Shown: piece by piece, positions 697 through 20,129 of the stretch
Layout of the letters: each line of letters opens with the position of its first letter
Numbering within the stretch: position 1 is the first letter of the stretch
NCBI RefSeq assembly: GCF_000014785.1
Contig: NC_008340.1
Coordinates: forward strand, 1,380,001-1,412,000
DNA length: 32,000 bases
Source: Alkalilimnicola ehrlichii MLHE-1
Lineage (GTDB): Bacteria > Pseudomonadota > Gammaproteobacteria > Nitrococcales > Halorhodospiraceae
Direction: 5' to 3'
Program-made: the position numbers and the translations under genes
The notes under the pieces: model-generated
Databases searched by the model: none
Seen by the model: only the letters and a program-made list of their open reading frames with translations
Told to the model about the DNA's origin: nothing

Positions 697-713
697 CCCC
701 CGCGCTGCGGGGG
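697..713. terminator. GC-rich hairpin between convergent genes (CCCCCGC-gct-GCGGGGG), no U-tract
   Basis: A 7-bp perfect stem with a 3-nt loop sits in the 67-nt gap between the stop at 666 (+) and the stop at 734 (-). There is no flanking T/A run, so this is only a weak terminator candidate. Confidence 0.25.
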
Positions 714-733
714 CGTCCGGTGGGTGGGGGGCG

Positions 734-1784: not shown

Positions 1785-2188
1785 GGGTGTTCCGCACCCT
1801 TTTCCCCGCGGAAAGCCGGCGCCTGCCCGCTCAGCGTTGGGTCAACATCGGGCTGCGCTCTCTGCACCTGATGGGGACGGCCGGACTCGGCGGCGCCTAC
1901 CTCTATGAGGCGCCGCAGGCGGCCTGGTTGCCCTATTTCTGGCTGACCATGGTGTCCGGGGTGTTGATGGCGGCTATCCACATCTGGAACAACGGGATCT
2001 GGCTGATCCAGGTGCGCGGCCTGGCGATCATGGCCAAGGTGCTGCTGTTGTTGCTCATTGCATGGCTGGAGGGCGCGGATCTTGCGCTGTTTCTGTTGGT
2101 CATACTGATATCGGGTGTAATCGCCCATGCGCCGGGTGACCTGCGCTATTACTCGCCATGGTATGGAAAACGCATGGAGAAACTGTAG
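1781..2188 (+). CDS. hypothetical small polytopic membrane protein (135 aa)
   Basis: ATGA start/stop overlap with the DUF77 gene (1781-1784). Several hydrophobic segments (LGGAYLY..., FWLTMVSGVLMAAIHIW, IMAKVLLLLLIAWL, LALFLLVILISGVIAHA). GC3-rich codons. No family recognised. Confidence 0.6.
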   Translation: MRVFRTLFPAESRRLPAQRWVNIGLRSLHLMGTAGLGGAYLYEAPQAAWLPYFWLTMVSGVLMAAIHIWNNGIWLIQVRGLAIMAKVLLLLLIAWLEGADLALFLLVILISGVIAHAPGDLRYYSPWYGKRMEKL

Positions 2189-2496
2189 TCATAAGAGAAG
2201 CGCGTCACAAAATGAGTCGTCAGACACTTGCCTGCGGACAGTCATATGCCTACCCTGCGTTATTCGTCTGCGCGGCCGATTCCAAGTGAGGTCGTATATG
2301 TCCGGGTGGTGGCTGCCAAGCCGTTGATCCCAGGGCCATCTCTTTGCGGGCGTTGCGGGGGCCGAGGGCCCCGGGCGCCAAGTTCGACACCTGTTCCGGG
2401 TGCCGTTCCGGGTTTCTGGTAGGTCCAGTGCATGTCCGGCTGTAGGCGGGCAGGGCCGGGCCTTCGCCGGAGCCCGCGATATGTGGGAGGAAGATT

Positions 2497-3867: not shown

Positions 3868-3890
3868 CCCACCTGACCCACCCCCACCCC

Positions 3891-3922
3891 GGTCCCCCGC
3901 TCCTGCGGGGGACCTTCGGTTT
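3891..3922 (+). terminator. rho-independent terminator after the KamA-family gene
   Basis: GGTCCCCCGC-tcct-GCGGGGGACC (10-bp perfect stem, 4-nt loop) followed by TTCGGTTT, starting 24 nt after the stop codon. Confidence 0.6.
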
Positions 3923-3990
3923 GGGCCGGTGGTTGCCCGGCCTGAGCCTGGTGCAGGCCGGCTGCTGTAACCCCGTGAGGCAAGGCCCTG

Positions 3991-5115: not shown

Positions 5116-5121
5116 GCCGTT

Positions 5122-8100
5122 ATGGTCCTTTCCGATATCTCCGTCAAACGCCCGGTACTGGCCACGGTGATCAGTCTGGTCATCGTGGTGCTGGGGGTGG
5201 CCTCGCTCAGCCAGCTACCGATCCGGGAATACCCGGACATCGACCCGCCCGTGGTGTCGGTCACCACCACCTATACCGGTGCCGCCCCCCAGGTCATTGA
5301 CACCGAGATCACCGAGGTGATCGAGTCGGCGGTCAGCGGTGTCGACGGTATCCGCACGATCACCTCCGAGAGCCGTGATGGCCGCGGCCAGACCACCATC
5401 GAGTTCCGCACCAGCCGTGATGTGGACAACGCCGCCAATGACGTCCGTGACGCCATCAACCGGACGTTGGACGACCTGCCCAATGAGGCGGACCAGCCGG
5501 TGGTGGCCAAGGCGGATGCCGACGCCCGGCCGATGATGTGGATCACCCTCAGCTCCGAGCGTTGGACGCCGGAGGAGGTCAGCGATTACGCGGAGCGCTT
5601 CCTGGTGGACCGCCTGTCGGTCCTCGATGGGGTCTCCGATATCTTTATCGGCGGTGAGCGGCGCTACGCCATGCGGGTGTGGCTGGACCGCCGTGCCATG
5701 GCGGCCCGCGGCATTACCGTGGCCGACGTGGAGAGCGCGCTGCGGGCGAATAACGTGGAACTGCCCGCGGGCCGGGTGGAGTCCCGGATGCGCGACCTCA
5801 CCGTGCGTACGGAGACCCGGCTGGCGGAGCCGGAGGAGTTCGCCAACCTGGTGATTCGGCGCACCGACGACTACCTGGTCCGCCTCGGCGAGGTGGCCCA
5901 GGTGGAGCGGGGCGTGGAGGACGACGACACCACCGTGCGCATGAACGACCAGACCGCCATCGGCCTGGGGATTCTGCGCCAGTCCCAGGCCAATACCATC
6001 GCCGTCTCCGACCGCGTGCAGGAGGAGATGGAGGCGATCCGCGCCTCGCTGCCCGAGGGTATGGCGATGGAGGTGGGCTACGATGAGTCCATCTTTGTGC
6101 GCGATTCCATCCGCGAGGTGGTGCGCACCCTGCTTATCGCCGTGGGTCTGGTGATTCTCACCATCTTCATCTTCCTGCGCAGTCTACGGGCCACCTTCAT
6201 CCCCTCGGTGACCATCCCGGTGGCGGTGATCGGGGCCTTCACCGTGATGGCGCCCCTGGGCTTTTCGGTCAACGTCCTGACGCTTTTGGCGCTGATCCTC
6301 GCCATCGGACTGGTGGTGGACGACGCCATTGTCATGCTGGAGAACATCCAGCGTCGGATCGACGAGGGGGAACCGCCTCTGTTGGCGGCCTATCGGGGTG
6401 CCCGCCAGGTGGCCTTCGCCATTATCGCTACCACCGTCACCCTGATCGCCGTCTTCGTGCCCCTGTCCTTTATGGAGGGCAACGTTGGCCGACTGTTCAC
6501 GGAGTTCGGGTTCGTGCTGGCCGCGGCCGTGGCCTTCTCGTCGCTGGTGGCGTTGACCCTAGCGCCCATGCTCTGCTCCAAGTGGTTACGCAGCGGCACC
6601 GAGAACCCCGGGCGGTTGAAACAGGCCACCGATCGACTGTTCCAGGGGCTGACCAACGGCTACCGTTGGGTCCTGGAGCGTTCGTTGAAGATGCCGGTGG
6701 TGGTGCTGGGGGTGGCCGCACTGTTCGCGGGGACCGCCATCACCCTGTTCCAGGCCCTGCCCCAGGAACTGACACCGACCGAGGACCGCGGGGTGTTCAT
6801 TGTGCCCGCCACCGGGCCCCAGGGCGCCACCAGCGAGGCGCTGGATGAGAGTCTGCGGGAACTCGAGGCGCTGCTGGCGCCCCTGCGCGACGAGACCGGT
6901 GAGGCCTTTCGCATCCTCTCCATCGGCGGGTTCCGCGGGGTCACCAACCGTGGTTTCGTCATCGTCGGGCTGACCCCCTGGGGGGATCGCGACCGCCGGC
7001 AGCAGGACATCGTCGCGGAGATGATGCCACAGATCATGGGCGTCCCCGGGGTGCGGGCCTTTGCCGTCAACCCGCCGGGGCTGGGGCAGAGCGGCTTCCA
7101 GCAACCGGTCCAGTTCGTGATCGGCGGGCCCGACTACGAGGATGTGGCCGAGTGGGGCGAGCGGGTCATGGCGCGCGTGCGCGAAGAGAACCCCCGGCTG
7201 GTCAATCTGGATATGGACTACGAGGAGACCCGGCCGCAGGTTCAGGTCCAGGTCAACCGCGCCCGCGCCTCGGACCTGGAGATCCCCATCGATGTGATCG
7301 GCGGGACGTTGCAGACCATGATGGCCTCGCGGGAGGTGACCACCTATCTCGATCGCGGGCGCGAGTACCAAGTGGTGTTGCAGGCGGGAGACGAGGCCCG
7401 GGCCAGCCCCGATGACCTCAGCCATATCTTCGTGCGGGCGGGGGTCAACGGGGAACTGATCTCGCTGTCCAGCCTGCTCACCCTGCGCGAGGAGGGCTCG
7501 CCGCCCACCCTCAACCGGGTGGGCCGGCTGCCGGCGGTCACCCTCACCGCCTCGTTGGCGGACGGCTACGATCTGGGCAGCGCGCTGGAGTACCTAAATC
7601 GGGTGGCGGCCGAGGAGTTGCCGCCGGAGTCCCGGATCAGCTACCTGGGACTGTCCGAGGAGTTCATGGAGACCTCCGGGGCGCTGGTGCTGACCTTCGC
7701 CCTGGCGTTGTTGATCGTCTTCCTGGTCCTGTCGGCCCAGTTCGAGAGCTTCATCCATCCGCTGATCATCCTGGTGGCGGTGCCGCTGGCGGTGACCGGG
7801 GCGCTGGCGGCATTGTTCGTCGGTGGCCTGACGCTGAATATCTATAGCCAGATCGGTATGATCCTGCTGATCGGGTTGATGGCGAAGAACGGGATCCTCA
7901 TCGTCGAGTTCGCCAACCAGATGCGGGATCGGGGGATGACCGTGCGCGAGGCCATCCTGGAGGGCGCCACCCTGCGTTTCCGGCCGGTGCTGATGACCGC
8001 CATTTCTACTATCTTCGGGGCCCTGCCGCTGGTGCTGGCTTTCGGCGCCGGCGCTGAAAGCCGGATGGCCATCGGTACGGTCATTATCGGTGGTATGAGC

Positions 8101-8232
8101 TTTGCCTCCCTGCTGACGCTGGTGGTCATCCCGGTGCTGTACGACCTGTTGGCGCGCTTCACCCGTCCGGTGAACGCCGTGGCGGAGGAGCTCAAGGCGC
8201 TGGGGGCGGAGGAGAGCGCCTACACCCGGTAA
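5122..8232 (+). CDS. efflux RND transporter permease subunit (AcrB/AcrD/AcrF, HAE1-like), 1036 aa
   Basis: SDISVKRPVLATVISLVIVVLG...LPIREYPDIDPPVVSVTTTYTGAAP, LLALILAIGLVVDDAIVMLENI and LIGLMAKNGILIVEFANQ are hallmark RND motifs. The length fits a 12-TM pump. Confidence 0.95.
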   Translation: MVLSDISVKRPVLATVISLVIVVLGVASLSQLPIREYPDIDPPVVSVTTTYTGAAPQVIDTEITEVIESAVSGVDGIRTITSESRDGRGQTTIEFRTSRDVDNAANDVRDAINRTLDDLPNEADQPVVAKADADARPMMWITLSSERWTPEEVSDYAERFLVDRLSVLDGVSDIFIGGERRYAMRVWLDRRAMAARGITVADVESALRANNVELPAGRVESRMRDLTVRTETRLAEPEEFANLVIRRTDDYLVRLGEVAQVERGVEDDDTTVRMNDQTAIGLGILRQSQANTIAVSDRVQEEMEAIRASLPEGMAMEVGYDESIFVRDSIREVVRTLLIAVGLVILTIFIFLRSLRATFIPSVTIPVAVIGAFTVMAPLGFSVNVLTLLALILAIGLVVDDAIVMLENIQRRIDEGEPPLLAAYRGARQVAFAIIATTVTLIAVFVPLSFMEGNVGRLFTEFGFVLAAAVAFSSLVALTLAPMLCSKWLRSGTENPGRLKQATDRLFQGLTNGYRWVLERSLKMPVVVLGVAALFAGTAITLFQALPQELTPTEDRGVFIVPATGPQGATSEALDESLRELEALLAPLRDETGEAFRILSIGGFRGVTNRGFVIVGLTPWGDRDRRQQDIVAEMMPQIMGVPGVRAFAVNPPGLGQSGFQQPVQFVIGGPDYEDVAEWGERVMARVREENPRLVNLDMDYEETRPQVQVQVNRARASDLEIPIDVIGGTLQTMMASREVTTYLDRGREYQVVLQAGDEARASPDDLSHIFVRAGVNGELISLSSLLTLREEGSPPTLNRVGRLPAVTLTASLADGYDLGSALEYLNRVAAEELPPESRISYLGLSEEFMETSGALVLTFALALLIVFLVLSAQFESFIHPLIILVAVPLAVTGALAALFVGGLTLNIYSQIGMILLIGLMAKNGILIVEFANQMRDRGMTVREAILEGATLRFRPVLMTAISTIFGALPLVLAFGAGAESRMAIGTVIIGGMSFASLLTLVVIPVLYDLLARFTRPVNAVAEELKALGAEESAYTR

Positions 8233-8287
8233 CCGCCGGTGCGGGGCAGCGGTCGACCGAGGGAGCTAAGGACGGAGGGGGAGGGCC

Positions 8288-10015
8288 ATGGCAGGCAAAG
8301 GGATTTCGATTCCGAGGCGATGGTTGTGGGCCGCGGCGGCCCTGCTGGTGCTACTGGTGCTTGTGCGCCACCTGCCACCGGCGGCCGGTGCCTGCAGCGG
8401 CGATTTCACACCGATTTACCAGGTCACCGGGGACGAACCGGGCGAGGCCCTCGATCCGGGGACGTCCGTCCGCGTGAAGGGCGCGGTTACGGGGGTCTTT
8501 CTGGACGACGGGGGCCTCGACGGCTTCTTCATCCAAGGCGAGGGCCCCGGCGACGGCCTGCCCAGCGGGGTGTTTGTCTATGCGCCGGGGCTGGCGCCGG
8601 AGGAGATGGCGCGGGTCCGTGCCGGCCGCCAGCTGGCCCTGCGGGCGCGCACCGGGCGCTGGCAGGGGCAGATCCAGCTTCAGCGCGTGCGGGCGTTAAA
8701 CGACTGCGGCGAGGCGGCGGAGTTGGCACCGCAGCCCGTTCGCTTCCCGCTGCATCGCCCGGAGCGGCGCTGGGCCGGCTTGTGGGTGCGGGTGGAGACC
8801 CCGATGACCGTCAGCGGCAGCCACGAACTGCAGCGTTACGGCAGCCTGCACCTGGCGGCCGACGGGCGTGCCTTCCGGCCCAGCAACTTTCTCGACCCCG
8901 ATGAGCGTCCGCCCGGCCGGCTGCGTTTGATCCTTGATGACGGTAGTCATTCGGTCTGGCCGGAGCCGGTGCCCTGGCTGGATGAGCGGGGGACCCGACG
9001 GGTCGGGACCCGGGTGGAGGGCCTGGAGGGGATATTGGCCGACACCTTCGGTGCCCTGCGACTGCACCCCACCCGCACGCCCCGGTTCGTCGACCAGAAC
9101 CCGCGTCCAGCCCCCCCGGAACGGGCCGGGGAGGGGCTGATCCGGGTGGCCGGTTTTAACGTGGAGAACTACTTCCTGACCCTCGGCGAGCGGGGGGCGG
9201 ACAGTGCGCGGGCCCTGGATCGCCAGCGCGCCCGCCTGCTTCCGGCGCTCGCGGCCCTGGACGCGGACATTGTCGGCCTGGTGGAGATGGAGAACGACCG
9301 CGCCGCGCTCGAGGACCTGGTTGCGGCGCTGAATGATCACCTGGGCGCCGACCGGTACCGGGCGGCGCCCGGCACACCGGACACCGGCAGCGACGAGATC
9401 AAGGTCTCGCTGATCTACCGCCCTGACCGGGTCGAACGGGTGGGCGGACCGCTCCGTGACCTGGAGCCCGTCCATCACCGGCCACCGGTCAAGGCGGCTT
9501 TCCGGCCGGCGGCGGGGGGCGCGCCCTTTGCCGTTGCCGTGGTCCACCACAAGGCCAAGGTGGGCTGCCCCGACAGCGACGACATCGACCGCGGCCAGGG
9601 CTGCTGGAACCTGCGCCGCCAGGCGCAGTCGGAAGCCCTGCTCGAGGCCATTGGCCGCTGGCGTGAGGATCGCGCGGACGACCTCCCCGTGCTCATCGTC
9701 GGCGACGTGAACGCCTATGGCGGTGAGGACCCGGTGCGCGCACTGCTGGCCGGTGGCAAGCGCGACCTGCTGGCGCGCCACCTGCCGCCGGAACGGCGCT
9801 ACACTTACGTCTTTCGCGGCGAGTCCGGCTACCTGGATCACGCCCTGGCCCCGCCACGGCTTGCAGACCGGGTGCAGGCCGCCGGCACCTGGGCCATCAA
9901 CGCCGATGAACCGCGGCTGCTGGAGTACGATGCGCGTGGTATCGAGCGGCGCTTCCGGCCCGGGCCCTGGCGCAGCTCGGATCACGACCCGGTTTGGGTG
10001 GACCTGCGGCCCTGA
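8288..10015 (+). CDS. ExeM/NucH-family extracellular endonuclease (endonuclease/exonuclease/phosphatase fold)
   Basis: Signal/anchor segment WLWAAAALLVLLVLV. Next come CSGDFTPIYQVTGDEPG...VRVKGAVTGVF...GFFIQ and PMTVSGSHELQRYGSLHLA, an OB-like N-terminal pattern of ExeM/NucH. The EEP core follows: IRVAGFNVENYF, IVGLVEMEND, VVHHKAK, LIVGDVNAY and SSDHDPVWVDL. Confidence 0.8.
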   Translation: MAGKGISIPRRWLWAAAALLVLLVLVRHLPPAAGACSGDFTPIYQVTGDEPGEALDPGTSVRVKGAVTGVFLDDGGLDGFFIQGEGPGDGLPSGVFVYAPGLAPEEMARVRAGRQLALRARTGRWQGQIQLQRVRALNDCGEAAELAPQPVRFPLHRPERRWAGLWVRVETPMTVSGSHELQRYGSLHLAADGRAFRPSNFLDPDERPPGRLRLILDDGSHSVWPEPVPWLDERGTRRVGTRVEGLEGILADTFGALRLHPTRTPRFVDQNPRPAPPERAGEGLIRVAGFNVENYFLTLGERGADSARALDRQRARLLPALAALDADIVGLVEMENDRAALEDLVAALNDHLGADRYRAAPGTPDTGSDEIKVSLIYRPDRVERVGGPLRDLEPVHHRPPVKAAFRPAAGGAPFAVAVVHHKAKVGCPDSDDIDRGQGCWNLRRQAQSEALLEAIGRWREDRADDLPVLIVGDVNAYGGEDPVRALLAGGKRDLLARHLPPERRYTYVFRGESGYLDHALAPPRLADRVQAAGTWAINADEPRLLEYDARGIERRFRPGPWRSSDHDPVWVDLRP

Positions 10016-10032
10016 CCGGACGGGCGCCGGCG

Positions 10033-11025
10033 CTACCAGCGCACGCTGAGGCTCAGTGACCCGTACTCGGCGTCCTCCGGTTGCCCCTTGAACTCCCGGG
10101 TGCGGTAGGCGTGGGTATAGGCGAGCCGGGCCCACCGGTTGGCCACCGCCAGGCCGACGGTGGCCTCGGCCACCCAGGGCTCGCGGCGTACGCTGCGGCT
10201 GCGTCGGTAAGTGTTGCCGTCCAGGAAGACATCACGGGCCCGGCCCTGGCCATCGATGCCAGTGAAGACATACCAGCCCCAACGTTCCGCGGGGACGAAC
10301 CGCATGGACCCGGGAAAGGCGGGCTGGATGCGCGGCGGCGAGAAGTCATTGGGCATGTGCCGACCGAGGCGCAGGGTCAGCCCGGTGCCGGCCAGGGTGA
10401 AGGGGGTGCCCAGGGCGAGCCCCAGGTGGCCGTTGAGGTCGGCGCCCCAGCCGTCGACCCGGGGCATCTCCCAGACGCGCTCGATCCGCTCGGCGCTCAC
10501 CATCAGGGTGGGTTCGTTGCGCAACTGGGTGTCCCAGCCCCGGGGCATGTCGGTGTCGATGAGCCGGTGCACCTCCTTCTGGGTGCGTTTCGCCAGCGAG
10601 GCCGGGCCAACCATCCCCACCGTGACCATCACCCGGGTCAGGCTGTCACTGCGCAACTGGCCCAGGCCCGTGCTGACGTTGAGCCAGCCGGCGTAGGGGC
10701 GGTCGTCCTCCGGCGGGTCCGGGTCGGTGATGTCCTTGGGGGTGTACATGTTCTGCCCCAGGGAGAAGCTGTAGCTTATCGGTTTTCCCGGATCGACCAG
10801 GCGGCTGCGTTCGCCCACCAGGGTGACCAGGTCGTAGAGGAGCCCCGGGCGGCCCGTGCGCATCCAGGTGGCGCGCACGCCATTGGTGTACCAGCGGTCA
10901 TCGCCGCCGAACAGATCGTTTTCGTACTCGAGGATCAGCGTGGTGTCCTCCGCGACCACCTGGCCGGGAAGGGCTATGCTTGCCGCTAGCAGGAGGCTAC
11001 TGAGCAGGGGGGCTATCGGGCGCAT
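10033..11025 (-). CDS. LpxR-family (DUF2219) outer-membrane lipid A deacylase-like protein
   Basis: Signal peptide MRPIAPLLSSLLLAASIALPG, then LEYENDLFGGDDRWYTNGVRATW and a C-terminal LAYTHAYRTREFKGQ...YGSLSLSVRW typical of the family. I chose the ATG at 11025 (start of the signal peptide) over the upstream ATG at 11091. Confidence 0.75.
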   Translation of the reverse strand: MRPIAPLLSSLLLAASIALPGQVVAEDTTLILEYENDLFGGDDRWYTNGVRATWMRTGRPGLLYDLVTLVGERSRLVDPGKPISYSFSLGQNMYTPKDITDPDPPEDDRPYAGWLNVSTGLGQLRSDSLTRVMVTVGMVGPASLAKRTQKEVHRLIDTDMPRGWDTQLRNEPTLMVSAERIERVWEMPRVDGWGADLNGHLGLALGTPFTLAGTGLTLRLGRHMPNDFSPPRIQPAFPGSMRFVPAERWGWYVFTGIDGQGRARDVFLDGNTYRRSRSVRREPWVAEATVGLAVANRWARLAYTHAYRTREFKGQPEDAEYGSLSLSVRW

Positions 11026-11137
11026 GAGGTCGTCTTTCCCTGGCAATTCCTGAGTCCCATTTTCGGGAACGGCTTGCGGTGGGTTTTGCAAGGTCCGTTA
11101 CAATAGCGCGTCAACTCACGAAAGCGGAGCACAACAC

Positions 11138-11536
11138 ATGAAGATCGTGAAACTGCAGGATATCATCGGTACCGAGCGCGAGGTCCACGGTGAGGGGTGG
11201 CGCAGCCGCCGGATCCTGCTGAAGAAGGACAAGATGGGCTTTTCTCTGCATGAGACCATCTGGCCCCCCGGTCACGAACTGCGCATGTGGTACAAGAACC
11301 ACCTGGAGGCGGTCTATTGCGTGGCCGGCAACGGCTCCATCGAGGACCTGGAGACTGGCGAGGTCCATGAGCTCTACGATGGCGTCTGCTACGCGCTGGA
11401 CAAGCACGACCGCCATATCCTGCGGGGTGGCACCGAGGAAATGCGGCTGGTCTGTGTCTTCAACCCGCCGGTGACCGGGTTGGAGGTCCACGACGAGGAC
11501 GGGGCTTACTGTCTGGTCGAGGACGACGACGACTGA
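11138..11536 (+). CDS. ectC: L-ectoine synthase
   Basis: [79 protein letters not shown] is the conserved cupin EctC sequence pattern. GGAG RBS upstream. On the opposite strand to ectAB. Confidence 0.95.
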
Positions 11537-11564
11537 GGCCGTTTCCGGCGCGGTTCAGCGGTGC

Positions 11565-11604
11565 AAAAAAAACCGGCGCCGGTGGCAACACCGGCGCCGG
11601 TTTT
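11565..11604. terminator. bidirectional rho-independent terminator shared by ectC (+) and ectB (-)
   Basis: AAAAAAAA-CCGGCGCCGG-tggcaaca-CCGGCGCCGG-TTTT: a 10-bp GC stem flanked by an A-run on one side and a T-run on the other. It sits 29 nt after the ectC stop and 33 nt after the ectB stop. Confidence 0.8.
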
Positions 11605-11636
11605 CTCATGGGTGACACCCTGGGAGCACCCGGCGG

Positions 11637-12959
11637 CTACTGGCTGGAGGCGGCGTCGCGGTTCATGCCCAGCTCCTCCATGGCCGCCACCAGCGCCTGC
11701 TCGATGATCGCCAGGCCCTTCTCCAGGTCCTCGTCGGAGGTGACCAGCGGCGGCAGCAGCTTGAGCACCTCGTCGCGCGGCCCGGAGGTCTCGATGATCA
11801 GCTTGCGCTGGAAGGCGTGCTCGCTGATCTTCTCGGCCAGCTCGGCGTTATCGAAGGCGATGCCCTGCATCATCCCGCGGCCGCGGACCTGACCCGGGGC
11901 CTGCGGGTACTTTTTCAGCAGGCCGGCCAGGAACTCGCGCATCTTCTCGCCCTTGCGCAGGACCTCCTTCTGGAAGCTGTCGTCGCTCCAGAACAGTTCC
12001 AGTGCGCGCTTGGCCGTGACCACGGCGGGGTTGAAGCCGCGGAAGGTGCCGTTGTGCTCACCCGGCTCCCAGATGTCGTGCTCCGGCTTGACCAGCGTGA
12101 TGGACAGGGGCATGCCGTAGCCGCTGAGCGACTTGGAGACGGTGACGACGTCCGGCTTGATGCCGGACTCCTCGAAGCTGAAGTAGGACCCCGCGCGACC
12201 GTTGCCGGCCTGGATGTCGTCCACGATCAGTAGCATGTCGTACTTCTTGCACAGTGCTTCGACCTGGCGCATCCACTCCGCGCAGGCCACATTGAGGCCG
12301 CCCTCGCCCTGGATGGGCTCCATGATGATGGCCGCGGGGTGGTCCACGCCCGAACCCCCATCCTTGAGCATCCGGTCCAGGTAGTCGACGCAGTTGCGCT
12401 CGCTCCCGCCGCGGTTGACGCAGGGGCCGAAGTAGCCGCAGTAGGGCATGGTCTGGCCGTGGGTCAGCGGGATGCCGGCCCCCTTGCGCTTGAACTCGTT
12501 ACCCGTCACCGACAGCGAGCCCAGGGTCATGCCATGGAAGGCGTTGGTAAAGGAGATGACGTCCTCCCGGCCGGTGACCTTGCGCGCGATCTTCAGCGCG
12601 GTCTCGACGGCGTTGGTCCCGGTGGGCCCGGGGAACTGCACCCGGTAGTCCATGCCGCGCGGCTCCAGGATCAGGCGGTGGAAGGTATCCAGGAATTCGG
12701 CGCGGGCCTTGGAGGCCATATCCAGGCTGTGCGTGACGCCGTCGCGCTCGAGGTATTCGATCAGCGCCTTTTTGATCTCCGGGTGGTTGTGCCCGTAGTT
12801 CATGACGCTGGCGCCGGCGAAGAAGTCCAGGTAGGCCTCACCGTCCAGGTTATAGAGGTAGCTGCCCTTCGCAGTGTCGAACACGGTGGGGAAGCTGCGC
12901 ACGTAGGAACGGACGATGGACTCGTGTTCCTCGATCGTGTGCATATAATCGATAGTCAT
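11637..12959 (-). CDS. ectB: diaminobutyrate--2-oxoglutarate transaminase
   Basis: MTIDYMHTIEEHESIVRSYVRSFPTVFDTAKGSYLYNLDGEAYLDFFAGASVMNYGHNHP...ISFTNAFHGMTLGSLSVTGN...LIVDDIQAGNGRAGSYFSFE...VTVSKSLSG is a class III PLP aminotransferase of the EctB type. The ATG at 12959 is preceded by GAGGGA. The 116-codon upstream extension in the ORF track overlaps ectA and is rejected. Confidence 0.95.
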   Translation of the reverse strand: MTIDYMHTIEEHESIVRSYVRSFPTVFDTAKGSYLYNLDGEAYLDFFAGASVMNYGHNHPEIKKALIEYLERDGVTHSLDMASKARAEFLDTFHRLILEPRGMDYRVQFPGPTGTNAVETALKIARKVTGREDVISFTNAFHGMTLGSLSVTGNEFKRKGAGIPLTHGQTMPYCGYFGPCVNRGGSERNCVDYLDRMLKDGGSGVDHPAAIIMEPIQGEGGLNVACAEWMRQVEALCKKYDMLLIVDDIQAGNGRAGSYFSFEESGIKPDVVTVSKSLSGYGMPLSITLVKPEHDIWEPGEHNGTFRGFNPAVVTAKRALELFWSDDSFQKEVLRKGEKMREFLAGLLKKYPQAPGQVRGRGMMQGIAFDNAELAEKISEHAFQRKLIIETSGPRDEVLKLLPPLVTSDEDLEKGLAIIEQALVAAMEELGMNRDAASSQ

Positions 12960-13014
12960 GGTGATCCCTCTGTATGAATGAACCTTGGTTGTCGAGTGCC
13001 CGGCAGCTGCCGGC

Positions 13015-13560
13015 TCAGGCGATGCAGTCGCCGTAGCGCCGCCGGACCTCGTCCGGGTCGAGCGGGCCGATCCGGAAGAGCAGCTCCGCCTCGTGCCCCT
13101 GATCGGGGTGGAAGTGCTCTTCGGTGAAATGCGGGCTTTCGATGTTGTCCACGCCCAGCTCGCGCGCGATGGAGGCGAACAGCGCCCGGGAGGCCTCGTT
13201 GGAGGGCGAGATCGTGGTCTCCAGCAGCGTCGCGCCGCGGGCACCGGGGGCGGCCAGGAAGGCGCGGAGCAGCCGCTTGCCCAGGCCCTTGCCCCGGGCC
13301 GCCGCATCCACGCCCACCTGCCAGAGAAAAATGGAGTCGGGGCGCTTAGGCGGGCGATAACCGATGACGAAACCCACGATCTGGCCGTCCATCTCCGCCA
13401 CCACGCTGGTGTCCGCGAAGTCGGTGGCCATCAACAGGTAAAGATAGCTGGAGTTCAGGTCCAGCACCCCGGAGTCGCGCACCACGCGCCACATGGGGCC
13501 GCCGTCATCAACGGTGGGGGTGCGGATTACAATGCCGTCCGCCGCGTTCTTATCAGACAC
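13015..13560 (-). CDS. ectA: L-2,4-diaminobutyric acid acetyltransferase
   Basis: IVIRTPTVDDGGPMWRVVRDSGVLDLNSSYLYLLMATDFADTSVVAEMDGQIVGFVIGYRPP...LFLWQVGVDAAARGKGLGKRLL is the GNAT pattern of EctA, and the gene is directly upstream of ectB. I prefer the GTG at 13560 (RBS GAGGAGA 5 nt upstream). The ATG at 13659 would add 33 poorly coding-like residues. Confidence 0.88.
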   Translation of the reverse strand: MSDKNAADGIVIRTPTVDDGGPMWRVVRDSGVLDLNSSYLYLLMATDFADTSVVAEMDGQIVGFVIGYRPPKRPDSIFLWQVGVDAAARGKGLGKRLLRAFLAAPGARGATLLETTISPSNEASRALFASIARELGVDNIESPHFTEEHFHPDQGHEAELLFRIGPLDPDEVRRRYGDCIA

Positions 13561-13758
13561 GGGATTCTCCTCGCTGGCTAGCTGGATGCGTGACAGAGAG
13601 CGGGTGTGTGAATGCCCCAGGGCCGACGGGCGGTTTCCGGGCGGGCCCGGGCCGGGCATTCAAGGGATGAATCGGTGTGATTGTTGAGGCCGCCGGTGGT
13701 TGCCGGCTTATTCTGTAGGGCTCGCAAACCGAGTCCTCGTTGCTCCTTTAAGCCCTTC

Positions 13759-13787
13759 ATTCAAACATTCCGCTATAAGCAGGTCAA
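13759..13787 (-). promoter_or_regulatory. candidate sigma70-type promoter for ectAB (-35 TTGACC, 17-nt spacer, -10 TTGAAT on the minus strand)
   Basis: The minus strand reads TTGACC-TGCTTATAGCGGAATGT-TTGAAT. This would give a ~190-nt leader before the ectA GTG. It is a sequence match only, and the -10 is weak. Confidence 0.3.
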
Positions 13788-13854
13788 GCTGGGCGCCCCG
13801 GGGGCATGAATGGCGAAGGGCGCCGGCGTATACTGTCCGTCCTTATCACTATAG

Positions 13855-14559
13855 GTGGCGGTAGCGGTGATGGTGCAACGAATTCTGGCCCTGGATACGG
13901 CCACGGAGGCCTGCTCGGCGGCGCTGGCCGTGGGCGATGCGGTATTGGCGGACAGTGTCATCAGCCCCCGCGGCCATACCGCCCGGGTGCTGCCCATGGT
14001 CAAGGCCTTGTTGGCCGAGGCGGGCATCTCGCTGGCGGCATTGGACGGCCTGGCCTGGGGCTGCGGCCCGGGATCGTTCACCGGGTTGCGCATCGGGACC
14101 TCGGTGGTCCAGGGGCTGGCTCTGTCCCACGATCTGCCGGTGGCGCCGGTCTCGAACCTCGAGATGCTGGCCCAAGGGGGCTGGCGGGCGGTTGGCGCCG
14201 CCCGGGTGGTGGCCGCCCTCGATGCCCGGATGGGCGAGGTCTACTGGGCCGGCTACGAGATCGGTGAGGATGGGCTGATGCACCCGGTTGCCAGGGCCCG
14301 GGTCTGCGCTCCCGAGGCCACCCCCTGTGTGGTCCGCGGGGAGGGCTGGTGGGGTGTCGGCCGGGGGTGGGGGGCGTACGGTGACGCCCTGGCGCGCCAG
14401 CAGGGCGAGTTGGCCGGCACCCTGCCGGAGGCCGTGCCGTTGGCCCGTGACGCGCTGGCCCGGGCCCGCCAGGTGTTGCGGGATGGCGAGGGGGTTTCGG
14501 CGGAGCAGGCCCAGCCGGTCTACCTGCGCAACCGGGTGGCGGAGAAGCCGCGGGCCTGA
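13855..14559 (+). CDS. tsaB: tRNA threonylcarbamoyladenosine (t6A) biosynthesis protein TsaB
   Basis: ILALDTATEACSAALAVGD...GHTARVLPMVKALLAEAGISLAALDGLAWGCGPGSFTGLRIGTSVVQGLAL...PVAPVSNLEMLA is the YeaZ/TsaB pattern. The start is uncertain: GTG at 13855 or ATG at 13870. Confidence 0.85.
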   Translation: MAVAVMVQRILALDTATEACSAALAVGDAVLADSVISPRGHTARVLPMVKALLAEAGISLAALDGLAWGCGPGSFTGLRIGTSVVQGLALSHDLPVAPVSNLEMLAQGGWRAVGAARVVAALDARMGEVYWAGYEIGEDGLMHPVARARVCAPEATPCVVRGEGWWGVGRGWGAYGDALARQQGELAGTLPEAVPLARDALARARQVLRDGEGVSAEQAQPVYLRNRVAEKPRA

Positions 14560-14610
14560 ACCCGGCACCCGCAGTGGTCGTCCCGGCGACCGATGCCCGG
14601 GCGTGCGGCG

Positions 14611-15600
14611 TCAGGCCCGGGCCAGACAGGCCGCCAGGTCGTCGGCCAGGCGCTCCATCAGCTCGAACCAGGCGTCCGGGCCGGGTTCCAGGGTTGCGCC
14701 CAACGGGTCGAGGACGCCGGCCTCGGCCCCGGTGCCTTCCACCAGGGTGGTCACCAGGCTCGGGCGGAACTGTGGTTCGGCGAAGACGCAGCGGGCACCG
14801 GTATCACGGATGCGCTGGCGGAGTTCTGACAGCCGGCGGGCGCTGGGCTGGCGCTCCGGGCTCACCGTCACCGAACCCACCGGACTGAGGCCGTAATGCG
14901 CCTCGAAGTATTGGTAGGCGTCGTGGAAGACCAGATAGGGAAGCTCAGCCAGCGACGCCAGGCGTTCATGCAGTGACGCATCCAACCGCTCGATCCGCTC
15001 CAGGGTGGCGGCGGCGTTGGCGCGATAGGCCGCGCCGTTGTCCGGGTCGAGGACCGCCAGCCTCTCCGCCAGCGTGTCGATAAACTGGCGCGCGAAGGCC
15101 GGGGAAAGCCACAGGTGAGTGTCGTAGTCCCCGTGGTGGTCGTGGGGCTGGCCATGACCATGGTCATGGTGGTGGTCACTATGGCCGTGGCCATGGGGTT
15201 CGTGGCTGTGATCGTCGTGGTGGTGCGGGTCCCACAGCCCCCCCTCGCGGATCGGGTGCAGGGGGATACCGTCCAGCGCCAGCAGCGTCATCTTCTCCGC
15301 ATCACCGGCCAGGTTGCGCAGCGGCCGCTCCAGGAACCGCTCCAGTTCCGGGCCGACCCAGATGACCAGCTCGGCGTGACGCAGATGCTCTGCCTCCGAC
15401 GGCCGCAGGCTGTAGGTATGTGGCGAGGCGCCACCGGGGAGCAGCAGTTGCGGCTCGGCCACGCCGTCCATGACCGACGCCGTCAGGCTGTGCAGCGGCA
15501 ACAGGCTGGCGACCACCTTTGGCGGCTGCGCCAGGGCACCGATGCTTGTCGTGAGCCCCAGAAGGGCACAGCCAAGCAGGCCGAACAGTTTGCTTTTCAT
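14611..15600 (-). CDS. znuA: zinc ABC transporter substrate-binding protein ZnuA with His-rich loop
   Basis: Signal peptide, then KVVASLLPLHSLTASV...GASPHTYSLRPSE...HLWLSP...LVFHDAYQYFE...VFAEPQF is the cluster A-I SBP pattern. The loop DPHHHDDHSHEPHGHGHSDHHHDHGHGQPHDHHGDYDTH is encoded at 15115-15231. The gene is divergent from zur-znuCB across a Zur box. Confidence 0.92.
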   Translation of the reverse strand: MKSKLFGLLGCALLGLTTSIGALAQPPKVVASLLPLHSLTASVMDGVAEPQLLLPGGASPHTYSLRPSEAEHLRHAELVIWVGPELERFLERPLRNLAGDAEKMTLLALDGIPLHPIREGGLWDPHHHDDHSHEPHGHGHSDHHHDHGHGQPHDHHGDYDTHLWLSPAFARQFIDTLAERLAVLDPDNGAAYRANAAATLERIERLDASLHERLASLAELPYLVFHDAYQYFEAHYGLSPVGSVTVSPERQPSARRLSELRQRIRDTGARCVFAEPQFRPSLVTTLVEGTGAEAGVLDPLGATLEPGPDAWFELMERLADDLAACLARA

Positions 15601-15674
15601 GGGCTTGTCGGGGTTCCAATGGGGAGAGTGGGCCGCTCGGCGCCGGGGCGCCCGGGTTCCGTGAATCGGTTCAA

Positions 15675-15688
15675 AATGTTATAACATT
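15675..15688. promoter_or_regulatory. Zur box (perfect 14-bp palindrome AATGTTATAACATT) in the znuA / zur-znuCB divergent promoter region
   Basis: The perfect palindrome contains the TGTTAT/ATAACA half-sites of Fur-family Zur operators. It lies 34 nt from the zur ATG and 75 nt from the znuA ATG, in the only AT-rich patch of the 121-nt intergenic region, and overlaps TATAAC -10-like hexamers on both strands. Confidence 0.75.
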
Positions 15689-15721
15689 GCACACTGTGGA
15701 TGCAAAGCGGGACGTCATACC

Positions 15722-16210
15722 ATGAACGAGCCGGGGGTGGTCACCGATTTCCACGACCACGGCCATGACCATGCCGGGTGTCAGCAGGCGGCGCTGCGCC
15801 GGGCCGAGGCGGTCTGTAGGACGAGCGGGGCACGACTCACGCCCCTGCGGCGCCGGGTACTGGAGCTGATCTGGGCGAGCCATGAGCCGGTCAAGGCCTA
15901 CGAATTGCTGGCCCGGCTGCGGGAGGAGCGGGCCAGTGTGGCGCCGCCCACCGTCTACCGGGCCCTGGAGTTCCTGCTCGCGCAGCGGCTGATCCACCGG
16001 CTCGAGTCCCTTAACGCCTACCTGGGCTGCGGCGCCCCGGACCGGCCTCACGCCTGTCAGTTCCTGATCTGTGAGCGGTGCCAGGCGGTGGCGGAGTTGT
16101 CCGATGACGATATCAGTCGGCTCATTGAGCGCAAGGCGCGCGACCTGGGCTTCCAGATGGACCGGCAGACCATTGAACTGACTGGCGTGTGCCCCGCATG
16201 TTTGGCCTGA
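15722..16210 (+). CDS. zur: Fur-family zinc uptake regulator Zur
   Basis: RLTPLRRRVLELIWASHEPVKAYELLARLREE...APPTVYRALEFLLAQRLIHRLESLNAYLGC is a winged helix. Two Cys pairs are present (CQFLICERC and GVCPAC). The position between znuA and znuCB matches the Pseudomonas/Xanthomonas-type locus. Confidence 0.9.
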   Translation: MNEPGVVTDFHDHGHDHAGCQQAALRRAEAVCRTSGARLTPLRRRVLELIWASHEPVKAYELLARLREERASVAPPTVYRALEFLLAQRLIHRLESLNAYLGCGAPDRPHACQFLICERCQAVAELSDDDISRLIERKARDLGFQMDRQTIELTGVCPACLA

Positions 16211-16977
16211 TCCACAATCCGCCCCACGCAGGGCGGCTGCCGGCCGCCGCCACCACCCTGGTGGAGGCCCGGGGGTTGACGGTGCGCCGGGGTGACCAGC
16301 CGGTGCTGTGCAATGTGGATCTGGTGGTGGAGAGCGGACAAGTGGTCACCCTGGTGGGGCCGAATGGCTCCGGAAAATCCACCCTGGTGCAGGTGCTGAC
16401 CGGCGTGATCCGGGATTACCGGGGGCAGGTGGGGCGCCGCACGGGGCTGCGGGTGGGCTACGTGCCGCAGCACTTTCGCATCGACCGCAACCTCCCCATC
16501 ACGGTGCGCCGGTTCATGAAACTGGCGCCGCGGGGCCGCCGGGGCCACTGGGCGGAAGCGGTGGCCGATGCCGGTGTCTCGCAGTTGCTGGACCGGCCCA
16601 TGCAGGGGTTGTCGGGTGGCGAATTGCGGCGGGTGCTGCTGGCCCGGGCACTGCTCTCACGCCCGCATCTGCTGGCGCTGGACGAGCCGGCAGCGGGTCT
16701 GGATCAGCGTGGCCAGGGGGAGCTGTACCGTTTGATCCGCCATGTGCGGGATCGCTACGGCTGCGGCGTGTTGGTGGTCTCCCACGACCTCAACCTGGTG
16801 ATGGCGGCCACCGACCAGGTGCTCTGTCTGAGCGAGGGCCATATCCTGTGCCGTGGGGCGCCGGAATCGGTGCGCGCCCACCCGGAGTACCGGGCGCTGT
16901 TCGGCGCGCACCTGGGGCCGGAGACAGCGGTCTTCCCTCACGCACACGGGCCGGGGGAGGGCTGCACTCATGGATGA
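16189..16977 (+). CDS. znuC: zinc ABC transporter ATP-binding protein ZnuC
   Basis: Walker A GPNGSGKST, signature LSGGELRRVLLARAL, Walker B LLALDEPAAGLD and H-loop VVSHD. Start is uncertain (GTG at 16189 or ATG at 16198); both overlap the zur stop. The 3' end overlaps znuB by 8 nt. Confidence 0.9.
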   Translation: MPRMFGLIHNPPHAGRLPAAATTLVEARGLTVRRGDQPVLCNVDLVVESGQVVTLVGPNGSGKSTLVQVLTGVIRDYRGQVGRRTGLRVGYVPQHFRIDRNLPITVRRFMKLAPRGRRGHWAEAVADAGVSQLLDRPMQGLSGGELRRVLLARALLSRPHLLALDEPAAGLDQRGQGELYRLIRHVRDRYGCGVLVVSHDLNLVMAATDQVLCLSEGHILCRGAPESVRAHPEYRALFGAHLGPETAVFPHAHGPGEGCTHG

Positions 16978-17791
16978 TTTCCTCCTTCGTGCCCTGTTGG
17001 CCGGTTTCGGACTGGCGGCGGTGGCCGGGCCGTTGGGGAGCTTCGTGGTCTGGCGGCGCATGGCCTATTTCGGCGACACCCTGGCCCACTCCGCCCTGCT
17101 GGGGGTGGCCCTGGGCTTTCTCATCGGCCTCAATGTCAATCTCGGGATCTTGCTGGTCTGTGGGGCGCTGGCGGTGCTGTTGGTCGTGCTGCGCAGCCGC
17201 CAGCGGCTGGCTGACGACACCATCCTGGGCATCATGGCGCACAGCACCCTGTCCCTGGGCCTGGTCTCTCTGGCGTTCCTGGAGCACGTTCGGGTGGACC
17301 TGATGGCCTACCTGTTCGGGGATATCCTGGCGGTGGGCCCGACCGAGTTGTGGTGGATCTGGCTGGGTGGGCTGGCGGTACTGGGGGTGTTGGCGCTGAT
17401 CTGGCGTCCCCTGCTCACCATGACCCTGCACGAGGAACTGGCTCGGGCCGAGGGCGTGCCGCTGCTGCCGATGCAGCTGCTGTTCATGGGTCTGATGGCG
17501 GGGGTTATTGCCATTGCCATGAACATCGTCGGTATCCTGCTGGTTACGTCGCTGCTGATCATCCCGGCGGCGACCGCCCGCCTGTTTGCGCGGACGCCGG
17601 AGCAGATGGCGGTACTGGCCTCCCTGCTGGGTTGCCTGGCGGTAGCGGGGGGGCTGCGGGGCTCCTGGAATTGGGATCTGCCCACCGGGCCTGCCATCGT
17701 CGTTACCGCCACCCTGTTGTTCACCCTGGCGATGGCGGCGACCTCCGTCTGGCAGGCACTCAGGGGTGATGGTGGGCGGGTCAATGGCTGA
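16970..17791 (+). CDS. znuB: zinc ABC transporter permease ZnuB
   Basis: MDDFLLRALLAGFGLAAVAGPLGSFVVWRRMAYFGDTLAHSALLGVALG...LLIIPAATARLFARTPEQM is the ABC-3 family permease pattern. I chose the ATG at 16970, since the upstream part of the track ORF is out of family and overlaps znuC. Confidence 0.9.
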   Translation: MDDFLLRALLAGFGLAAVAGPLGSFVVWRRMAYFGDTLAHSALLGVALGFLIGLNVNLGILLVCGALAVLLVVLRSRQRLADDTILGIMAHSTLSLGLVSLAFLEHVRVDLMAYLFGDILAVGPTELWWIWLGGLAVLGVLALIWRPLLTMTLHEELARAEGVPLLPMQLLFMGLMAGVIAIAMNIVGILLVTSLLIIPAATARLFARTPEQMAVLASLLGCLAVAGGLRGSWNWDLPTGPAIVVTATLLFTLAMAATSVWQALRGDGGRVNG

Positions 17792-17818
17792 TGCGTCCGG
17801 CCCGGCGCCGAGCCTCGT

Positions 17819-18634
17819 TCAGTCGGCCGGCCGGGCGTCCTTCAGCCGGTAGAACATGCCCATCTCATTCGGGTCGAGCAGTTCGAGCTCACCCTCCAGG
17901 GTGAGGGCATCGAATGTGAAGGCCAGCCCACGGTCTGTCTTGACCTCCACCACGCTCTCCGGTCCGCCCGGGGCGCAGTAGAAGCAGCTCGGGGTGCTGG
18001 CGCTGAGCAGGAAGTGGCGCTGCCGGTCGCCCTGTTCCAGCGGCATCATGAAGCCCTGGACCCGGACGGTCTGGCCCTCCAGGGCCAGGATGTCGTCGGG
18101 GAACTCGGCGGCCAGCAGGTCCTCCTCCTCCCAGGTCTTCAGGGCGCCGAGCCGGCGCCAACTGAGCACATCGTCGCGCTCCGGCAGCTCACCCTCACCC
18201 ACCTGGTGGTCGCCGTGTTGGTCCGCCTCCTCGCCGCCCACACGCAACCGCAACTCTCCCCGGGCCTCCCCGGGACCGGAGATCTCCAGGGTGTCCTGCC
18301 CGCCGCGTTGGGCTAGCAGCCGGGTGCGGGCAAAGCCGTCGGCGTCGGTACGCGGGGCGGGGTGGGTGATGAGATTGCCCGCGCGGGAGAGCACGGCCAG
18401 CCGCTCGCCCGCGACCGGCGCGCCATCGGCATCGGTAAAGCGGAAGGCCAGGTGGACCTGATCGCCGGCGTCCAGGCTCAGGGCCTCCACCTCGCCGAGT
18501 TCCAGGTTGCCGTCCAGGTAGGCGCTGATCCGCGGCTTGCCGGCGCCGTCCCGGCTGTCATCCGCGCAGCCCACCAGTGCGAGGACGGCCATCAGCGCAA
18601 CCGCAAGGACCTTGCCGGCCATGGTTCGTGGCAT
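17819..18634 (-). CDS. lipoprotein with Ig-like N-terminal module and DUF3299-like C-terminal domain
   Basis: Lipobox in MPRTMAGKVLAVALMAVLALVGCADD. The middle part VHLAFRFTDADGAPVAGERLAVLS...TDADGFARTRLLAQRGGQDTLEISG resembles bacterial Ig-like (Big) domains. The C-terminus WRRLGALKTWEE...FPDDILALEGQTVRVQGFMMPLEQGDRQRHFLLSASTPSCFYCAPGGPESVVEVK fits my recollection of the DUF3299 pattern. Start at 18634 (RBS GAGGGGG); 18679 and 18622 are alternatives. Confidence 0.7.
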   Translation of the reverse strand: MPRTMAGKVLAVALMAVLALVGCADDSRDGAGKPRISAYLDGNLELGEVEALSLDAGDQVHLAFRFTDADGAPVAGERLAVLSRAGNLITHPAPRTDADGFARTRLLAQRGGQDTLEISGPGEARGELRLRVGGEEADQHGDHQVGEGELPERDDVLSWRRLGALKTWEEEDLLAAEFPDDILALEGQTVRVQGFMMPLEQGDRQRHFLLSASTPSCFYCAPGGPESVVEVKTDRGLAFTFDALTLEGELELLDPNEMGMFYRLKDARPAD

Positions 18635-18722
18635 CGGGTTCCCCCTCGTCGTGCGGCCTGAGCCCTCGGAGTATGCCATCTCGCCGCGCCGGGTGCCCGA
18701 GCGGCCGGTCCGGCGCCGACGG

Positions 18723-20129
18723 CTACCGCTCAGACAACGTCAGGGCGATGTCGGTTCGATAGGCCTGCCAGGCCGGCAGCAGGGCGGCGACCAGGCCGAT
18801 GCCGGCGGCGATCAGCAGTAGCCAGCCCTCGCTCGGCACCCAGGTCAGGCCGGTCAGCTCCAGCGGCCGGTCGCGGCCGATCCAGCGGCCGATCAACTCG
18901 GCCGACAGGTGGCCGCCGGCAAGGCCCAATAGGGTGCCTGTGAGGGCCAGAAGCTGGCCTTCCAGGAGCACCAGGCCACTCACCAGTCGGGGCGAGGCGC
19001 CGAGACTGCGAATGATCGCGATGTCGTGCCGCCGTTCCCGCAGGGCGTTGTAGAGGCCAATGAAGACGCCCAGGCCGGCGGCCAGCAGCAGCACCCCGCC
19101 GAAGGCCTTCAGGGTGTCCAGGCCGACACCCATCATACTCATGAGGCGCGCGCTCTCGTAGGCCGGAGAGGCGGCCTGCAGGCCGGCCTCGGCGTTGATG
19201 GCGCGGGGCAGTTGCATGGCAGCCAGCGGTGAGCGGTAGCGGACCAGCAGGGCGGTCAGTTCCTGGTCTGCGGTGGCCACATCGTCGTGGCCGGCGCCCG
19301 GCTCCCGGTGGTCATGCCCTTGCCCGGCCGGATGCCCGTGGTCGTGATCCGGGGCCGGCTCGTGGGTGTGAGCCCGGTCGGCCTCATGGTCATGGCCATG
19401 GCCGGCCTCAGGGTGGTCGCTGTGGTCGTGCTCATGGTCGTGCTCATGGTCGTGATCGTGGTCGTGATCGTGGTCGTGATCGTGGTCGTGATCGTGGTCG
19501 TGATCGTGGTCGTCGTCATGGACGTCCCAGACGCTCTGCACCGAGGTCAGGACCAGCCGGTCCATGACCGTGCCGGTGGGGGCCAGTATGCCGACGACGG
19601 TGTAGGGGGCGTAGTCGTGGACATGGCCATGGCCGCCACCCAGGCCGTGGGCGCCGACGATCTCATCGCCGATGGCGAGCCCATGGCGGGCTGCCACCGC
19701 GGATCCGAGGGTGGCCTCCATGGCCTGCTCCCAAAGGCGCCCCTCGGCGAGTTCCCCCCGGTAGAGATCCACGTAGCCCGCGTCCGTGCCCACGATGCGG
19801 TGGCCGCGGTAGTTGTCACCCAGGGCCAGGGGGATGACCTCGCTCACCAGCCGGTGGTCCGCCAGCTCGCGGGCGGTTCGTTCAGGGATGTTGCCGGTGG
19901 GGATGTCCAGGTGATAAACGCTGGACAGGATCAGCTGCATGGGGCTGCCACTGGCGCCCACCACCAGGTCGATACCCTGGGCATCGCGGGTGAACTGGCG
20001 CTCCAGTTGATGGCCGTATAGCAGTAGCAGGGCAATGGTGCCGGTGCCCAGCGCCATCAACAGCAGATTGAGCAGCGCGGGGAGGGGACGGAAGCGCAAC
20101 CAGTTGAGAGTGAGGCGCAGGGCGTTCAT
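18723..20129 (-). CDS. FtsX/MacB-type ABC transporter permease with an 80-residue His/Asp-rich insertion in the periplasmic domain
   Basis: MNALRLTLNWLRFRPLPALLNLLLMALGTGTIALLLL is TM1. A large extracytoplasmic domain follows, then LKAFGGVLLLAAGLGVFIGLYNALRERRHDIAIIRSLGASPRLV...ALLPAWQAYRTDIALTL, an FtsX-type three-TM C-terminal module. The ATG at 20129 overlaps the ATPase stop (ATGA). The His/Asp tract is residues 204-283, encoded at 19281-19520. Confidence 0.85.
   Translation of the reverse strand: MNALRLTLNWLRFRPLPALLNLLLMALGTGTIALLLLYGHQLERQFTRDAQGIDLVVGASGSPMQLILSSVYHLDIPTGNIPERTARELADHRLVSEVIPLALGDNYRGHRIVGTDAGYVDLYRGELAEGRLWEQAMEATLGSAVAARHGLAIGDEIVGAHGLGGGHGHVHDYAPYTVVGILAPTGTVMDRLVLTSVQSVWDVHDDDHDHDHDHDHDHDHDHDHDHDHEHDHEHDHSDHPEAGHGHDHEADRAHTHEPAPDHDHGHPAGQGHDHREPGAGHDDVATADQELTALLVRYRSPLAAMQLPRAINAEAGLQAASPAYESARLMSMMGVGLDTLKAFGGVLLLAAGLGVFIGLYNALRERRHDIAIIRSLGASPRLVSGLVLLEGQLLALTGTLLGLAGGHLSAELIGRWIGRDRPLELTGLTWVPSEGWLLLIAAGIGLVAALLPAWQAYRTDIALTLSER
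19428..19511. repeat. in-frame 12-nt tandem repeat: 2 x GTGCTCATGGTC then 5 x GTGATCGTGGTC (minus strand encodes DHDH x5, DHEH x2)
   Basis: Read directly from the sequence. There are seven contiguous 12-nt units. The five units at 19452-19511 are identical; the two at 19428-19451 are identical to each other and differ from the other five at 3 positions. Confidence 0.95.

Follow-up and report, generated by a model that had tools for sequence, protein, structure and literature searches.

Rearranged or disentangled genes of ectoine biosynthesis (ect) are an established class (Czech et al. 2018; PMC5924519). León et al. (2018; Front Microbiol 9:108; PMC5818414) found the canonical cluster in only 9 of 35 genomes whose EctC is close to the Spiribacter salinus protein and listed Alkalilimnicola among many scrambled clusters. 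Ectoine was still proportional to salinity in S. salinus, which has scrambled ect genes (PMC5818414). For Alkalilimnicola ehrlichii, the ect arrangement was described by Schwibbert et al. (2011; Environ Microbiol 13:1973; PMC3187862). Here, the ect locus in a stretch of 32,000 nucleotides of A. ehrlichii MLHE-1 (contig NC_008340.1; called the window in the following) was examined. With a probability of about 90%, it is best explained as a whole as a rearranged ect locus, consisting of two convergent units. The first-pass annotation of this DNA had implied that the layout with an inverted ectC was new. This did not stand, as the same arrangement in the same species is already published (PMC3187862; PMC5818414). 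The layout is real, but already known for A. ehrlichii, and belongs to a recognised non-canonical ect class.

All three ect open reading frames (ORFs) were found as previously read, ectC on the plus strand and ectB and ectA on the minus strand, and the family profiles confirmed their identities (Table 1). EctA, EctB and EctC all scored above their family cutoffs; the gene set for ectoine is complete. A canonical operon, with the three genes co-oriented and contiguous, is not present, since ectC lies on the other strand. With a full set but no single ectABC operon, the locus fits the scrambled class. EctC and EctB are identical to the A. ehrlichii proteins ABI56539.1/WP_011628934.1 and ABI56540.1, and LpxR matches ABI56538.1 (exact protein look-up). 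For ectA, public assemblies contain the same gene call.

The best matches of EctC in the PDB were 5BXX and 5ONM, the ectoine synthases of S. alaskensis and P. lautus. In the alignment to both structures, the iron ligands E57, Y85 and H93 are all retained. The substrate and product contacts known from P. lautus ectoine synthase (PMC6344544), namely W21, S23, R25, T40, Y52 and F108, are likewise retained. Position 38 is His, like in the active S. alaskensis enzyme. EctC of the window is thus no degenerate orphan. As EctA, EctB and EctC are all intact by sequence, the ectoine output should stay unchanged.

The same gene order and orientation was detected in two complete chromosomes, MLHE-1 (3.28 Mb) and CP184336.1 (3.19 Mb), and two separate sequencing runs gave the same layout in their Logan assemblies. 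The exact protein look-up listed four NCBI accessions. At the junction of ectC and ectB, the sequence of CP184336.1 is identical apart from A9 for A8. Furthermore, two metagenome contigs of a diverged relative (L078 and L079) carry lpxR, ectC, ectB-ectA and tsaB in the same layout, with identities to the window of 96% for EctC, 97% for EctB, 96% for EctA, 90% for LpxR and 79% for TsaB.

Hairpin and promoter regions

Bidirectional intrinsic terminators between convergent genes are a common arrangement in bacteria. Between ectC and ectB, 28 nt past the ectC stop and 32 nt past the ectB stop, a hairpin was identified in the order A8 (11565-11572), CCGGCGCCGGTG, loop GCAA (as read on the ectC transcript), CACCGGCGCCGG and T4 (11601-11604). 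The inverted-repeat search gave two arms of 16 nt each (11569-11584 and 11589-11604), 100% complementary and separated by the 4-nt loop. The GC-rich stem of 12 bp, CCGGCGCCGGTG/CACCGGCGCCGG, can be extended by four A-U pairs. For a segment of 58 nt with this hairpin, a folding energy of -35 kcal/mol was obtained for both strands (z = -6.3 and -6.2), and none of 200 shuffles (0/200) was as stable. By this stable GC-rich stem-loop between convergent stops, the element resembles a terminator. Both units, ectAB and ectC, would end at this one Rho-independent palindromic hairpin; its function as a terminator and its action in both directions are predicted.

Like known bidirectional intrinsic terminators, the element has a GC-rich palindromic stem and flanks of an A-run and a T-run, and lies between two stops. 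Unlike these, it is asymmetric: the stem is followed by U8 on the ectB transcript, but by only U4 (UUUUCUC) on that of ectC. In the consensus terminator scan, the hairpin was called in the minus-strand direction only. Of the bidirectional terminator claimed in the first-pass annotation, the strong palindromic hairpin is present, with a short U-tract on the ectC side. The relative L078 keeps the hairpin. There, bases at the top of the stem are changed with the pairing retained, and the flanks are A7 and T7, i.e. symmetric with U7 on both transcripts. This fits selection for a two-way terminator. The A-run has the same length (A8) in the window and SRR9436228, but is A9 in CP184336.1 (L001:6428-6436), which may be due either to strain variation or to a homopolymer sequencing error.

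Comparable elements occur in relatives. The ectB-ectC spacers of L013 (5899-6000), L080 (5874-6000) and L082 (5901-6000) are 100-130 nt long and contain a GC-rich hairpin with a U-rich run behind it. In these three loci, terminator- or attenuator-like punctuation sits inside apparent operons of co-oriented genes. Because of these hairpins, the transcriptional punctuation after ectB may predate the inversion of ectC. The strong side of the window hairpin facing ectB may descend from them; hairpins this short cannot be homologised.

With its location on the opposite strand, ectC cannot be co-transcribed with ectAB by read-through, and by logical necessity the gene requires its own promoter in the spacer between lpxR and ectC. 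This claim of the first-pass annotation follows from the strand layout. The given length of 112 nt for the spacer shared with the divergent LpxR-family gene also held, provided that the public 330-aa ATG start is used. In the window and L078, the 54 nt before the ATG of ectC (11084-11137) are identical and the 74 nt from 11064 to 11137 differ at 3 positions; the part of the spacer proximal to lpxR diverges. The ectC promoter is probably located within these conserved ~75 nt before the ATG. A candidate -10 element, TACAAT, was picked by eye at 11099-11104, and a candidate Shine-Dalgarno sequence, GGAG, lies at 11126-11129, 8 nt before the ATG. The ectC leader is strongly conserved and provides a defined fragment for promoter mapping. 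The region upstream of ectC was aligned with three solitary ectC loci and with the ectB-ectC spacers of five relatives that have canonical clusters, but no homology was detected. That ectC carried an ancestral internal promoter along was considered and dropped, as it could not be demonstrated without such homology to the spacers of the relatives.

Promoters belonging to ectC are also known from co-oriented clusters. In H. elongata, rapid amplification of cDNA ends (RACE) mapped a sigma-54-type start with -12/-24 elements 47 nt upstream of ectC. With the M. halophilus genes in E. coli, ectA, ectB and ectC each apparently had an own promoter (PMC2562377). The statement that ectABC is co-transcribed in the characterised producers is thus over-simple.

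For ectAB, a candidate promoter on the minus strand was picked by eye about 200 nt upstream of ectA, composed of TTGACC (13782-13787), 17 nt and TTGAAT (13759-13764). The spacer between ectA and tsaB is 91% identical to that of L078, and the block with the candidate hexamers is invariant. A consensus promoter scan of this spacer found none. The spacer also holds a terminator-like hairpin on the plus strand (13692-13707).

Origin of the arrangement

The distribution of arrangements was surveyed in 74 species-representative loci, found with EctC of the window; A. ehrlichii itself was not returned. The canonical order ectA-ectB-ectC was found in 43 loci, and 14 had an ectC without ectAB within 2.5 kb. 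For 13 loci the contig was too short for judgement. The genes were co-oriented but reordered in two, divergent in one (Micavibrio, L031) and convergent in one (a planctomycete, L030). An ectC on the opposite strand is therefore uncommon, yet it arose more than once.

The closest other EctC proteins (77-82% identical) belong to genomes and metagenome-assembled genomes (MAGs) of Arhodomonas, Aquisalimonadaceae and Ectothiorhodospiraceae. In L008, L010, L013, L082, L085/L086 and L087/L088, tsaB, usually followed by an MFS gene, is divergent from co-oriented ectA-ectB-ectC, and some of these loci continue into ectD. As upstream anchor of the ect genes, tsaB was found in L008, L010, L013, L080, L082, L085 and L087. 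An MFS gene lies between tsaB and ectA in L080, L082, L085 and L087, in place of which A. ehrlichii has a non-coding spacer of 294 nt. Read on its minus strand, the window has the order znuCB-zur-znuA-tsaB / ectA-ectB, and the synteny with the relatives ends after ectB. A match to LpxR adjoining ect genes was detected in no relative outside the Alkalilimnicola lineage. The synteny comparison proposed in the first-pass annotation thus gave co-oriented genes for the close relatives and an inverted ectC, as in the window, for L078 and L079.

Among these relatives, no ectA was detected by tblastn in L080 (3237-5873) and L081 (Arhodomonas sp. SL1-type). At the place expected for ectA, loci of this type have a carbon-nitrogen hydrolase gene (PF00795) upstream of ectB-ectC-ectD. 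Moreover, the ectB of L081 is distributed over two ORFs.

Because the relatives keep tsaB-(MFS)-ectA-ectB-ectC(-ectD) co-oriented, the ectC inversion is most parsimoniously explained as derived and specific to this lineage, by a rearrangement that broke the locus directly after ectB. Judged by synteny, the ancestor would have had zur-tsaB-(MFS)-ectA-ectB-ectC(-ectD), which was rearranged in the Alkalilimnicola lineage. In this event, ectC would have been flipped and parted from ectD, and the MFS gene lost; ectC now lies on the opposite strand beside the unrelated genes for LpxR, an ExeM-type nuclease and RND efflux. The outcome is two convergent transcription units, ectAB and a monocistronic ectC. 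As the only consequence, their coordination would have to act in trans, not via co-transcription. Inverted repeats flanking ectC as possible end-points of an inversion were not found.

The same genomes gave the best matches for EctA (60-70%) and EctB (65-69%) and were among the best for EctC (77-81%), which favours an inversion in situ over a re-acquisition. In the latter case, the ancestral ectC would have been lost and a solitary ectC, obtained by transfer or from another locus, would have landed on the opposite strand beside ectB by chance or selection. Solitary copies are indeed common among the close relatives of EctC, as the 14 of 74 loci show, and some are equally close to EctC of the window, with 82% identity for L083 and L084. 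The position of ectC, however, immediately after ectB, is the ancestral one. The G+C content of ectC is the lowest of the locus (0.59-0.64), but ectA and ectB also lie below the flanking genes (0.59-0.68 for the ect genes against 0.70-0.76; positions 10950-13050). The lack of detectable similarity of the ectC upstream region to the ectB-ectC spacers of the relatives would agree with a re-acquisition. Against this, the genomes with the best EctA and EctB matches are also represented among the best ones for EctC, and no transposase, integrase or tRNA gene was found near the ect genes. Re-acquisition is the weaker alternative to a rearrangement and is considered unlikely.

It is very improbable that the hairpin is not mainly a terminator, but a protein-binding site or a palindromic recombination element, similar to repetitive extragenic palindromes (REP), through which the inversion took place. 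It is located exactly at the synteny breakpoint, and its perfect 16-nt inverted repeat includes internal CCGGCGCCGG palindromes. Nevertheless, its own arms are the sole copies in the 32-kb window, where it is not a dispersed repeat, and no matching repeat was found on the other side of ectC. The flanks of A-run and T-run are the signature of an intrinsic terminator, lengthened to 7/7 in L078 with the pairing kept, and canonical relatives already carry terminator-like hairpins after ectB.

An assembly artefact, with a co-oriented ectABC operon in the true genome, has a negligible probability. No support for it was found; the perfect palindrome at the junction is of a kind that can confuse assemblers. 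The misassembly that the first-pass annotation wanted checked is excluded by the recurrence of the layout in both chromosomes, both run assemblies and the L078/L079 contigs, and by its description in two papers based on the MLHE-1 genome (PMC5818414; PMC3187862).

Several points weigh against the preferred explanation, the rearranged locus with two convergent units. Since nothing downstream of ectC is syntenic with the relatives, the inverted segment cannot be delimited. The solitary ectC products of Wenzhouxiangella and Marinobacter (77-78%) are about as similar as EctC from canonical clusters. EctC is short and conserved; therefore its comparison does not resolve the two origins and does not strictly exclude re-acquisition. 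A consensus sigma-70 scan of positions 10000-14600 and of 1-20000 gave 0 promoter-like sites, including the region upstream of ectC. A sigma-54 search (TGGCAC-N5-TTGCW, up to 2 mismatches), performed because of the precedent of the H. elongata ectC promoter, gave no plus-strand site upstream of ectC and a total count below chance. With a U-tract of only 4 nt, the termination of ectC may be leaky. Finally, transcript data for A. ehrlichii were not found in the searched literature.

Regulatory consequences and meaning

It had been suggested that the ratio of N-gamma-acetyldiaminobutyrate (N-gamma-ADABA, N-gamma-acetyl-DABA) to ectoine could be controlled independently in this layout. This is speculation, and the sequence itself gives no reason to assume it. 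An adaptive uncoupling of ectC, in which a separate promoter sets this ratio or the leaky U4 side sends antisense transcripts into ectB, is unlikely. If true, the antisense to ectB would let the last step of the pathway act back on the first two as a built-in negative feedback. The sister lineage does not share the weak U4 tract, as L078 has U7 on the ectC side; this speaks against an antisense mechanism under selection. Data on ectoine pools of A. ehrlichii were not found in the literature.

The locus shows an osmoprotectant pathway that tolerates the loss of operon linkage. In ectoine research, such a loss is already documented for A. ehrlichii by name and for many other Gammaproteobacteria of marine and hypersaline habitats. 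The additions made here are modest: the conservation of the inversion in a second Alkalilimnicola-like lineage, the probable ancestral state tsaB-(MFS)-ectABC(D) of the clade, the ectB-ectC counterparts of the terminator-like hairpin on the ectB side in canonical relatives, and the strongly conserved ectC leader. Neither the shared hairpin nor the conserved leader is mentioned in the passages of Schwibbert et al. and León et al. on this locus.

Neighbouring genes and comparison with known ect loci

The features of the locus and the results of the profile searches are listed in Table 1.

Table 1 Features of the ect locus of A. ehrlichii (positions in the window)
Feature	Position	Strand	Assignment and remarks
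lpxR-family outer-membrane protein gene	10033-11025	-	PF09982, 352 bits; 330-aa ATG form as in public gene calls
lpxR-ectC spacer	11026-11137	+	112 nt with the 330-aa lpxR start; must contain ectC promoter and 5' untranslated region
ectC, L-ectoine synthase (132 aa)	11138-11536	+	NCBIfam NF009806, 193 bits (cutoff 128); Pfam PF06339, 198.6 bits, 1e-59
Intrinsic-terminator-like hairpin common to ectC and ectB	11565-11604		Between both stop codons
ectB, diaminobutyrate-2-oxoglutarate transaminase (440 aa)	11637-12959	-	ectoine_ectB equivalog TIGR02407, 631.5 bits (cutoff 552.2)
ectA, diaminobutyrate acetyltransferase (181 aa, GTG start)	13015-13560	-	ectoine_EctA equivalog TIGR02406, 190 bits (cutoff 120.6)
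ectA-tsaB divergent spacer	13561-13854	-	Presumed ectAB promoter region
tsaB, t6A complex subunit	13855-14559	+	TIGR03725, 189.7 bits; synteny anchor upstream of ectA in the clade

The Pfam scan covered 35 ORFs of the window. No Pfam match was obtained for 9 of these, and 7 of the 9 share most of their length with an annotated gene on the other strand. The families PhyH (ectD), AA_kinase (ask) and MarR (ectR) were not detected among the 35 ORFs, which agrees with the earlier reading that ectD, ask_ect and ectR are not adjacent. EctD of A. ehrlichii has been purified and characterised in vitro (PMC3979721); therefore, ectD lies elsewhere in the genome. In the whole window, Rfam gave 0 matches at the gathering threshold, and 0 tRNA or tmRNA genes were found.

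Beta-amino acids from KamA-type enzymes can act as osmolytes. About 7 kb from the ect genes, an ORF of 456 aa (2497-3867, plus strand) matched a KamA-family radical-SAM aminomutase model (TIGR00238, 144 bits). It also matched models of lysine, glutamate and arginine 2,3-aminomutases, remained below every curated cutoff and had no Pfam match at 1e-5. Adjoining tsaB, a complete zinc-uptake locus was identified (14611-17791) with znuA (His/Asp-rich loop), a zur-like gene of the Fur family, znuC and znuB; in L085, a Fur-family gene likewise lies near tsaB, beyond it. Furthermore, an ORF of 513 aa (24913-26454, plus strand) has an APH-type phosphotransferase domain and, C-terminally, an AAA_33/zeta-toxin-like kinase domain; it reached the cutoff of no NCBIfam model.

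The ect locus of the window is identical to that reported for A. ehrlichii by Schwibbert et al. and León et al., without substantive difference. In its passage on this locus, the latter paper uses the wording "divergently"; the genes are strictly convergent here, with the 3' ends facing each other. With the canonical ectABC(D) clusters of H. elongata, C. salexigens, M. halophilus, Arhodomonas (L082) and the MAGs L008, L013, L085 and L087, the locus shares the same enzymes and the chromosomal order A-B-C. With the canonical operons of close relatives, it also shares the tsaB anchor upstream of ectA. In contrast to these clusters, ectC of the window is on the other strand and cannot be reached by read-through from ectAB.

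An uncoupling of the ect genes from a single operon is common to the other scrambled loci. S. salinus has ectAC and a separate ectB, Marinobacter and Nitrosococcus have ectAB and a distant ectC, and in Micavibrio (L031) ectAB and ectC are divergent. The planctomycete locus (L030, 6001-9795, Planctomycetaceae) has ectA-ectB-aspartokinase converging on ectC, so that an inverted ectC also occurs independently in an unrelated phylum; words for an opposite orientation were not found in a paper on ectoine in Planctomycetota (PMC13342039). Unlike the locus of A. ehrlichii, L030 has the aspartokinase gene between ectB and ectC. Compared with the other scrambled loci, ectC of A. ehrlichii stays next to ectB, separated by a spacer of 100 nt with one putative common terminator.

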